Shown here: positions 37,712 to 40,700 of the stretch, piece by piece
Layout: each line of letters starts with the position of its first letter
How positions within the stretch are numbered: position 1 is the first letter of the stretch
Made by a program: the position numbers
Assembly (NCBI RefSeq): GCF_009931435.1
Contig: NZ_CP043414.1
Origin: Escherichia coli
GTDB taxonomy: Bacteria; Pseudomonadota; Gammaproteobacteria; Enterobacterales; Enterobacteriaceae
Length of the DNA: 64,000 nucleotides
Direction: 5' to 3' (one strand)

Positions 37712-40700
37712 TTACGCAATATTTAATGCTATTTGTTAACATTTGCTGTTATTTTGCACGGTCTATATTGGGTATGGATGTGGTGATCGCTGCGCAAATG
37801 CACGCTTTTAGGGCAATAAATGCCTGATTTTTGGGCAAGATAATTAACGTTTTCGTATAGTAACAGAGTGAAAGTATTTTAAATCAAGGAATTAGATTTG
37901 TGCTTTAATCGCAAATTGCGATCTAAATCAAATTAATCGGTTAAAGATAACCGCAGCGGGGCCGACATAAACTCTGACAAGAAGTTAACAACCATATAAC
38001 CTGCACAGGACGCGAACATGTCTTCTCATCCGTATGTCACCCAGCAAAATACCCCGCTGGCGGACGATACCACTCTGATGTCCACTACCGATCTGCAAAG
38101 CTATATCACTCATGCTAATGACACTTTTGTGCAGGTGAGCGGCTATACCTTGCAGGAGTTACAGGGGCAGCCGCACAATATGGTGCGTCATCCCGATATG
38201 CCAAAAGCGGCGTTTGCGGATATGTGGTTCACCCTGAAAAAAGGGGAGCCCTGGAGCGGCATCGTGAAAAATCGCCGCAAAAATGGCGACCATTATTGGG
38301 TGCGGGCCAATGCGGTACCGATGGTGCGCGAGGGAAAAATCAGTGGCTATATGTCGATTCGTACCCGGGCGACGGATGAAGAGATTGCGGCGGTGGAGCC
38401 ACTGTACAAAGCGTTGAACGCCGGACGTACCAGTAAGCGTATTCATAAAGGCCTGGTGGTGCGTAAAGGCTGGCTGGGAAAACTGCCTTCATTGCCGCTT
38501 CGCTGGCGGGCGCGTGGAGTGATGACGCTGATGTTTATCTTGTTGGCGGCTATGCTTGGGTTTGTTGCTGCCCCGGTGGTGTCGTATTTCCTCTGTGCAT
38601 TAGTGGTATTGTTAGTAAGCGCCTGTTTTGAATGGCAGATTGTGCGCCCGATAGAAAATGTCGCCCGTCAGGCACTGAAGGTGGCGACCGGAGAACGTAA
38701 TAGTGTTGAGCATCTGAATCGCAGCGATGAGCTGGGGCTGACATTACGCGCGGTAGGGCAGCTTGGCCTGATGTGCCGTTGGCTAATTAACGATGTCTCG
38801 AGCCAGGTGTCCAGTGTCAGAAACGGCAGCGAGACGCTGGCGAAAGGCACTGATGAACTGAACGAACATACCCAACAGACGGTTGATAATGTTCAGCAAA
38901 CGGTGGCGACCATGAACCAGATGGCGGCGTCGGTGAAACAGAACTCTGCCACGGCGTCGGCTGCCGATAAACTTTCGATCACCGCCAGTAATGCGGCCGT
39001 GCAGGGCGGGGAGGCGATGTCCACGGTGATCAAAACGATGGACGATATTGCTGACAGTACCCAGCGCATTGGCACCATTACTTCGCTGATTAACGATATT
39101 GCGTTTCAGACCAATATTCTCGCCCTGAATGCGGCGGTGGAAGCTGCGCGTGCCGGAGAACAAGGCAAAGGTTTTGCAGTGGTGGCAGGGGAAGTGCGTC
39201 ATTTAGCCAGCCGCAGTGCTAATGCCGCCAACGATATTCGCAAGCTGATTGATGCCAGTGCTGATAAGGTGCAATCCGGTTCGCAGCAGGTACACGCCGC
39301 CGGACGGACGATGGAAGATATTGTGGCGCAGGTAAAAAACGTCACCCAGTTGATAGCTCAGATTAGCCATTCAACGCTGGAACAGTCCGATGGGCTTTCC
39401 AGCCTGACCCGTGCGGTGGATGAGCTTAACCTGATCACCCAGAAAAACGCCGAGTTAGTGGAAGAGAGTGCGCAGGTGTCGGCGATGGTGAAACACCGCG
39501 CCAGCCGACTGGAAGACGCGGTGACGGTGCTGCATTAATCGGTATGCCGCATCCGGCGGTTGGCGCACAATGCCTGATGCGATGCTGGCGCATCTTATCA
39601 GGCCTACGGGGTGTGTAGGGTACGCCGCATCCGGCAATCGGTGATTAATCCAGTTGGGTAATATCAAAAGCGGCGCGGTCGATCACCGCAATGATCTTTT
39701 TTATTTGTGCATCAGTGATATCGCTCTGGTTGACGCGTAAATCCAGCACCGCTTTAAAATTATCCAGCGCCCGCTTCATTTGCGGGTTCTGGCGCAGCGC
39801 AGCGCCAACGCAACGCGCTTTGATGCGCTCTTCAATCATCTCCACTTGTTCGCGGTTTTCTTCCAGCCACTGCGCGCCTTGTTCGGTCAGCGCAATCTGC
39901 TTCTTACCACCTTCCTCTTCGCGGATGGTAATTAGCGACTGTTCCTGAAGAAAATCCAGCGTCGGGTAGATGACGCCCGGGCTTGGGGTGTAATTTCCCT
40001 GGGTCAGATTTTCAATCGCTTTAATCAATTCGTAACCGTGGCTGTCATCGCGCGAGAGAATATCCAGAATCACCAGACGCAATTCACCGTGACCAAAGAA
40101 ACGTTGCCGACGACCGCCGCCGCGACCGTGGCGACCACCACAGCATTGACCGTGTTCATGCTGGTGACCGTGTCCGCAGTGTTCGTGTTCTGATTTCTCA
40201 CCTTTGCAGCAGCCTTCATGACGTGGCTGGCCTTCATGTTTACAACACCCTTCGTGGTGATGGCTCATATCAGCCTCCTTTGGCTTAATTAGATATATCT
40301 AATTTATATCTGATATGAGCGCTCTTGCAAGTGTAAAAATGATTTTTAAACGTGGACTCATCTCACACGTAGGCCGGATAAGGCGTTCACGCCGCATCCG
40401 GCGTTGAGTAATGATGCCTGAGAAGAGGCGGTTCGTCTTATCAGACTATAGACATATCAGTTCTACAAATCGCTTGCATTTATCACGATTAACAATCATT
40501 ATCATTTAATAATTTTATTTAGATATATCTGATTATCATCACGAAGGCGATAACAATGAATAATTCCCCCAGCTACCCACAGCGCGTTCGCAATGATCTG
40601 CGCTTCCGTGAACTGACTGTGTTACGCGTTGAGCGTATCAGTGCCGGTTTTCAGCGCATTGTCCTCGGCGGCGAGGCGCTGGACGGTTTTACATCGCGCG

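Follow-up and report, generated by a model that had tools for sequence, protein, structure and literature searches.

How the divergent genes yqjI (nfeR) and yqjH (nfeF) are controlled from the short spacer that separates them, and whether the repetitive extragenic palindromic (REP) sequences lodged in this spacer take part in the control, are the questions raised by positions 40269-40555 of a 64-kb stretch of Escherichia coli DNA (contig NZ_CP043414.1, assembly GCF_009931435.1), hereafter called the window. The region is the already characterised nfeR-nfeF divergent control region of E. coli, and none of the elements pointed out in a preliminary description of this DNA is new. It very probably works as a dual-repressor switch, acted on by YqjI and by Fur. 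According to the literature, NfeR/YqjI acts on nfeF as a repressor, and its effect is relieved by nickel (PMC7981267, with reference to the 2011 and 2014 Wang papers); in Klebsiella, deletion of nfeR raises nfeF 85-fold (PMC7981267). In a paper based on RegulonDB data, YqjI appears as a negative regulator and its effectors are nickel and Fe2+. A search for papers quoting YqjI footprints found none. The two Wang studies are said to cover already a pair of YqjI sites, the control by Fur and the REP, and reportedly show DNase I footprints at a 'site I' and at an extended 'site II', with cooperation between the sites.

The palindromes flanking the spacer are the core of the argument. The preliminary description had held that TTAGATATATCTAA (40289-40302), next to yqjI, and TTTAGATATATCTGATTATC (40518-40537), next to yqjH, share a core, consistent with repression of both genes by YqjI. 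Both strings are present where they had been placed, and the shared core TAGATATATCT is real: with at most one mismatch allowed it is hit four times in the 64 kb, the hits being two sites read on both strands, both in the spacer. Only 0.43 hits would be expected, and four were not reached in any of 100 shuffles. A position weight matrix (PWM) built from orthologous YqjI sites, and circular for those sites themselves, assigns 22.6-29.5 bits to the YqjI sites and 10.9 bits to the next best match in the window. Repression of both genes by YqjI is supported by the conservation of the operators in six genera, as by the literature on NfeR and nfeF, and so is the reading of the control region given in the preliminary description.

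Species-representative genomes scanned with YqjI yielded 32 loci in Escherichia, Citrobacter, Enterobacter, Lelliottia, Superficieibacter, and Raoultella. The divergent gene order is kept in all the fetched loci having both genes (31/31). The phylogenetic footprint was drawn from 33 non-identical spacers, K-12 and the window included, which measure from about 130 to 287 bp. Blocks invariant or nearly so are few. The yqjI side features GATATATCTAA, located at the palindrome and unchanged in the 33 spacers, TATATC 11 bp on, and then the GCAA of a -35-like hexamer. The yqjH side features CTTGC and AATCATTATCAT at fixed spacing, and GATATATC 30-32 bp from the Fur core, a distance fixed across the set. 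GATATATC, the core of the shared 11-mer, is unchanged in all spacers of the six genera. Outside these blocks the spacer is free to vary, length included. Few invariant blocks amid free variation provide strong independent evidence that the two palindromes and the Fur-like core are functional, and palindromes which stay invariant while the flanking spacer diverges are the pattern expected of the operators of an adjacent repressor.

On the yqjI side, TTAGATATATCTAA is the centre of a longer, perfect 18-bp palindrome, AATTAGATATATCTAATT (40287-40304). This is the predicted YqjI operator 'site II', identified by sequence, conservation and PWM score (29.5 bits, the top match in the window, for a matrix trained on the same sites). 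The palindrome proposed earlier holds; taken alone it is incomplete, since an 11-bp-phased direct repeat also belongs to the site. This second unit, TATATCTGAT (40305-40314, plus strand), follows TATATCTAAT (40294-40303) at an 11-bp phase and has the same sequence as the right half of site I. TATATC is found 11 bp beyond the palindrome in 32 of the 33 spacers, TGTATC in the remaining one, and site II is made by three 11-bp-phased units in Enterobacter. The later Wang study reportedly found an extended site II footprint, which fits a palindrome plus a direct repeat.

A sigma-70 promoter for yqjI is predicted on the minus strand at 40303-40330, with TTGCAA as -35 (40330-40325), a 16-nt spacer, and TATAAA as -10 (40308-40303). 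The GCAA of the -35 is kept in orthologous spacers, and the homologous -10 is TATAGT in Enterobacter. The same hexamers have been predicted for K-12 by Shimada et al. (PMC3946193) by genomic SELEX (systematic evolution of ligands by exponential enrichment) with RpoD. Transcription of yqjI would start near 40296, at the palindrome centre. With its -10 in the second repeat unit and its start inside the palindrome, the yqjI promoter should be occluded by YqjI bound at 40287-40314. Site II is also bracketed by a perfect 11-nt inverted repeat, GCTCATATCAG / CTGATATGAGC (40263-40273 / 40310-40320), one arm of which covers the yqjI start codon, the other being in the promoter spacer. A hairpin exerting translational control was considered and discarded: one arm is upstream of the predicted transcription start, so that an mRNA hairpin seems unlikely, and the O111 variant would give a C·A mismatch in the mRNA sense. 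A second inverted repeat, of 17 nt and 15/17 complementary, joins 40338-40354 (AATGATTTTTAAACGTG) to 40484-40500, the left part of the Fur box. AATGATTTTTAAACGTG is an A/T block upstream of the yqjI -35. All long spacers keep a related block, TGAWTTTWA, which may serve as an UP element or as a weak Fur-like site.

On the yqjH side, the predicted operator 'site I', TTTAGATATATCTGAT, spans 40518-40533 (core 40520-40530). It was recognized by the same kinds of evidence, and scores 28.0 and 22.6 bits on its two strands. Two promoters may be drawn next to it. In model A, predicted here on the plus strand at 40474-40502, a TTGCAT -35 (40474-40479) and a CATTAT -10 (40497-40502) are set 17 nt apart; CTTGC, AATCATTATCAT and their spacing are invariant in 33/33 spacers. 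In model B (PMC3946193), TTAACA (40489-40494) and TTTTAT (40513-40518) are 18 nt apart, and other genera do not keep these hexamers. Relative to the yqjH start, site I would span about +9 to +25 under model A and about -7 to +9 under model B, and at either position bound YqjI should block initiation or escape. A minus-strand scan match, ATGATA-16-TAAAAT (40539-40512), was dismissed, as such matches occur at the chance rate (1 found, 1.1 expected).

A Fur box, AACAATCATTATCATTTAATAAT, had been reported at 40488-40510. The string exists once, 3 nt further right, at 40491-40513. Conservation in it is limited to GATTAACAATCATTATCATTT; the last seven bases, TAATAAT, fall in a non-conserved patch varying within E. 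coli (GCGAGTT in K-12, ACGAAAA in another strain), and the predicted Fur site is therefore better drawn as 40485-40509. Fur boxes are described either by a 19-bp consensus, GATAATGATAATCATTATC, or by a 7-1-7 inverted repeat, TGATAATnATTATCA. The 7-1-7 core TAACAATCATTATCA, at 40490-40504, fits 12 of 14 positions and is the single best match in 64 kb; most of it is overlapped by the invariant 13-mer AATCATTATCATT (40494-40506). The 19-bp consensus is matched at 13/19 positions by two overlapping 19-mers, at 40485 (plus strand) and 40491 (minus strand), offset by 6 nt, as is typical of Fur arrays. Compared to enterobacterial Fur boxes, the right arm AATCATTATC is perfect, whereas the left arm is weak (TAACAAT vs TGATAAT), which accounts for the low 19-bp score, and the box overlaps a core promoter. 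It covers the spacer and the -10 of the yqjH promoter in model A, the -35 and the spacer in model B, so that yqjH would be expressed only at low iron.

Fur-regulon membership comes from the literature. By its title, Wang, Wu & Outten 2011 (J Bacteriol 193:563) places yqjH under Fur control, and nfeF/yqjH is named in published listings of the Fur regulon. Salmonella yqjH changes 3.8-fold in a fur mutant, and is listed among the genes with a putative Fur-binding motif. In its main text, Beauchene 2015 does not mention yqjH.

The switch would operate as follows. A dimer of YqjI, a PadR-family protein, would recognise the palindrome AGATATATCT at two places. Bound to site II (40287-40314), it would cover the yqjI -10 and the predicted start, resulting in autorepression; bound to site I, at or just downstream of the yqjH start, it would block yqjH. 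Fe2+-Fur would bind at about 40485-40509, on the core yqjH promoter. Nickel, bound to the His/Cys-rich tail of YqjI, would release the protein from DNA. The REP pair (40369-40449), residing in the untranscribed gap, would be a passenger insertion which lengthens the spacer.

The REP noticed earlier at 40370-40404 is genuine, and its GTAG head begins at 40369. The element, GTAGGCCGGATAAGGCGTTCACGCCGCATCCGGCGT (40369-40404, plus strand), is an imperfect palindrome which folds as a hairpin (-23.1 kcal/mol, z = -4.0). Two further copies of its 30-nt core (40373-40402) are present in the window, an exact one at 858-887 and one with a single mismatch at 22474-22503, which makes three in all. A second, degenerate REP, missed in the preliminary description, is located at 40413-40449 on the same strand, and forms with the first a pair resembling a bacterial interspersed mosaic element (BIME); it aligns at 24/32 positions to a REP in the aer-yqjI spacer. 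Like E. coli REP/BIME repeats, the first element combines a GTAG head with an imperfect palindrome of about 35 nt, and is repeated identically elsewhere in the window; unlike them, it separates divergent promoters instead of following a transcription unit at its 3' end, and its partner is degenerate. The Rfam model naRNA4 (RF02564, a REP-derived RNA) covers 40372-40447 in its whole length at 46.5 bits, below the threshold of 59.5, and the match reflects shared REP sequence only. A 'terminator' called by the promoter scan at 40415-40430 is part of the degenerate REP. A role at the RNA level was set aside: being between two back-to-back promoters, the REP is probably in neither mRNA.

Among the orthologous spacers compared, REPs reside in those of Escherichia only. 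The degenerate REP is confined to one E. coli haplotype, and is absent from the 276-bp spacer haplotype. A 70-mer specific to the 287-bp spacer type of K-12 and the window is found in 2490 of 5426 complete E. coli genomes, the 276-bp type lacking the second REP in at least 1692 E. coli genomes. Being lineage-specific and set between back-to-back promoters, the REP pair is best seen as a passenger. The two spacer types differ by 11 bp in length (window positions 40405-40472), which shifts the helical phase between the operators. The aer-yqjI spacer (39528-39640) is itself a REP cluster, measuring 106 bp here and 153 bp in K-12, and contains a sub-threshold naRNA4 match (44.2 bits).

The distance between the centres of site II and site I is 230 bp in the window and K-12, 217-219 bp in other Escherichia, 166-185 bp in Citrobacter, Raoultella and Superficieibacter, and 96-97 bp in Enterobacter and Lelliottia. 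As neither length nor phase is conserved, a simple phase-dependent loop does not fit, and, judging from the spacers compared, any 'communication' between the sites is not tied to either. No match to the IHF site with at most one mismatch, as a bending element, was found at the relevant position in any Escherichia spacer. A perfect IHF consensus, WATCAANNNNTTR, occurs in six spacers from Citrobacter and in all four from Raoultella (spacer positions ~81-95), some 60 bp away from site II; no Escherichia spacer and none of the short Enterobacter spacers has a perfect match. YqjI also varies. In several Enterobacter and Lelliottia species the protein starts with MRHEHEGGGRRPRFFGHG and entirely lacks the His/Cys-rich N-terminal tail, and Raoultella tails are rich in His but devoid of Cys. 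All these loci keep the Fur box and the two operators, and the supposed nickel-sensing tail is thus evolutionarily labile.

Some results weigh against the switch as drawn here. The yqjH promoter is ambiguous between models A and B, and a generic promoter scan of the region found no plus-strand promoter. The score of 13/19 for the classical Fur consensus is the top one in the two-strand window scan, but is reached by 24 entries; the 7-1-7 model was used instead because the 19-mer scan does not discriminate. The distance between the operators (96-230 bp, or 9.1-21.9 turns) has no conserved length or helical phase. The AT-rich palindrome could have been repeated by chance in an AT-rich spacer (37% G+C vs 52% in the window), or be a promoter element shared by the two sides, given that it overlaps the predicted yqjI -10. 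This has a negligible probability: no shuffle reproduced the pair, conservation is perfect at both positions in six genera with divergent flanks, and the site I copy is not at the -10 position in model A. Shuffles and conservation together effectively refute it. It is very improbable, too, that the invariant AATCATTATCATT is only the -10 and spacer of yqjH, with iron acting indirectly. The block does coincide with the CATTAT of model A, and the 19-mer match is unremarkable; the best 7-1-7 match of the 64 kb, however, lies precisely here, 13 invariant bases extend well past one hexamer, and the title of the 2011 paper and several other reports place yqjH under Fur; the gene also changes in the Salmonella fur mutant.

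The remaining alternatives concern how the two YqjI sites relate to each other. The REP/BIME might take an active part in the switch, perhaps by binding a protein or bending the DNA so that they can communicate. It is positioned between the two sites, and the nfeF/nfeR spacer was the sole target of PepA, a DNA-wrapping aminopeptidase, in genomic SELEX with E. coli K-12 (PMC8249747); a PepA site is not definable from sequence in 40269-40555. The length of the spacer is said, in the abstract of the later Wang study, to matter for regulation. Yet every spacer from outside Escherichia does without the REP and still has the Fur box and both operators, a common E. coli haplotype lacks the second REP, and mutagenesis of the REP reportedly left YqjI regulation unaffected in that same study; a working role is thus very unlikely. 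Alternatively, the palindromes could be independent operators, each serving the adjacent promoter without long-range looping or cooperation. The free variation in distance and phase would suit this arrangement, as would the fact that each site overlaps or abuts its own promoter. The title of Wang et al. 2014 (J Bacteriol 196:3199), on communication between the sites, reports the opposite for K-12, and independence is regarded as unlikely. The dual-repressor switch, with the REP pair as a passenger, is the preferred interpretation.

A third, degenerate operator-like motif, TAGACATATCAG, was picked out as a candidate by PWM and comparison at 40449-40460. It is found about 70 bp upstream of site I, and ends 13 nt upstream of the TTGCAT hexamer. 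The sequence present here and in K-12 carries two substitutions and scores 7.3 bits; the intact form, CAGATATATCAG, scores 13.3 bits. Intact copies are found in E. albertii, the cryptic-clade Escherichia sp. E1V33, 7/7 sampled E. coli of the 276-bp haplotype, and E. coli W4, a strain of the 287-bp type. Composition alone would give such a spacer a third AGATATATC 9-mer with a probability of about 0.006, by our own estimate. The motif has decayed independently at least twice, in the K-12 type and in strain SCPM-O-B-8794, and any role should therefore be auxiliary. Outside Escherichia only TATC and an A-tract are kept at this position, which could equally be an UP element. It is possible, if rather doubtful, that the ancestral Escherichia spacer has three YqjI sites instead of two, the third and site I bracketing the core yqjH promoter and the Fur box.

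Operators of the PadR family, such as those of Bacillus subtilis PadR and Lactococcus lactis LmrR, are ATGT-N8-ACAT inverted repeats, and are autoregulated. The system described here shares with them a repressor with a PadR domain, an inverted repeat by the gene of the repressor, and a divergent regulator/target arrangement. In contrast, the YqjI half-sites differ in sequence (AGATAT/ATATCT) and are contiguous, site II features the additional 11-bp-phased direct repeat, and the inducer is a metal acting at an N-terminal His/Cys tail, not a phenolic ligand.

The genes flanking the spacer conform to this picture. The yqjI coding sequence (39645-40268, minus strand; 207 aa), the RefSeq orthologue of which is annotated nfeR, encodes a PadR-family protein (PF03551, 56.6 bits against a cut-off of 27, E = 2.5e-15) with a His/Cys-rich N-terminal tail. 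The yqjH coding sequence (40556-41320, plus strand; 254 aa), annotated nfeF in RefSeq, encodes a siderophore-interacting NADPH-dependent ferric reductase with the Pfam domains FAD_binding_9 and SIP. Putative Shine-Dalgarno sequences, read from the DNA, are AGGAGG for yqjI (40274-40279, minus strand) and GAAGG for yqjH (40543-40547, plus strand); ACGAAGG, in the latter region, is kept in most orthologous spacers, not in the Enterobacter group. In RefSeq E. coli the pair resides between aer and tRNA-Ile(CAU) (ileX), followed by mug and rpoD. The spacer measures 287 bp as in K-12 MG1655, and is identical to it at 279 positions (97.2%). The 8 substitutions (40282, 40322, 40486, 40508-40510, 40512, 40536) leave the operator and Fur cores untouched, and K-12 has the same REP and predicted promoters as well; 4 of the 8 changes are grouped in the non-conserved stretch separating the Fur box from site I.

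For a core gene, nfeF is unusually polymorphic: 1318 of 5422 E. coli genomes carry alleles only 90-95% identical to that of the window. The K-12 NfeF protein is 95.3% identical to the one encoded here; identity of the adjacent NfeR is 99-100%. The lineage of the window is rare among complete genomes, 18 of 5425 records being at least 99% identical over 5.9 kb (44100-50000, dnaG-ttd), and the best match of the nfeR-nfeF region (39400-41500) among complete E. coli genomes is 98.2%.

Taken as a whole, the locus is a textbook-style case of one promoter integrating iron signals, through Fur, and nickel signals, through YqjI/NfeR, and the analysis is mostly confirmation. It refines the definition of the operator, as GATATATCTAA plus an 11-bp-phased TATATC, and supplies evidence for the lineage-specific, passenger nature of the REP pair and for evolutionarily free operator spacing. 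These refinements are useful for modelling the reported two-site 'communication', and leave the overall picture unchanged. Should the third motif bind YqjI, the two-site model based on K-12 would lack a site, and the tightness of the nickel/YqjI control of yqjH would vary naturally among E. coli strains.

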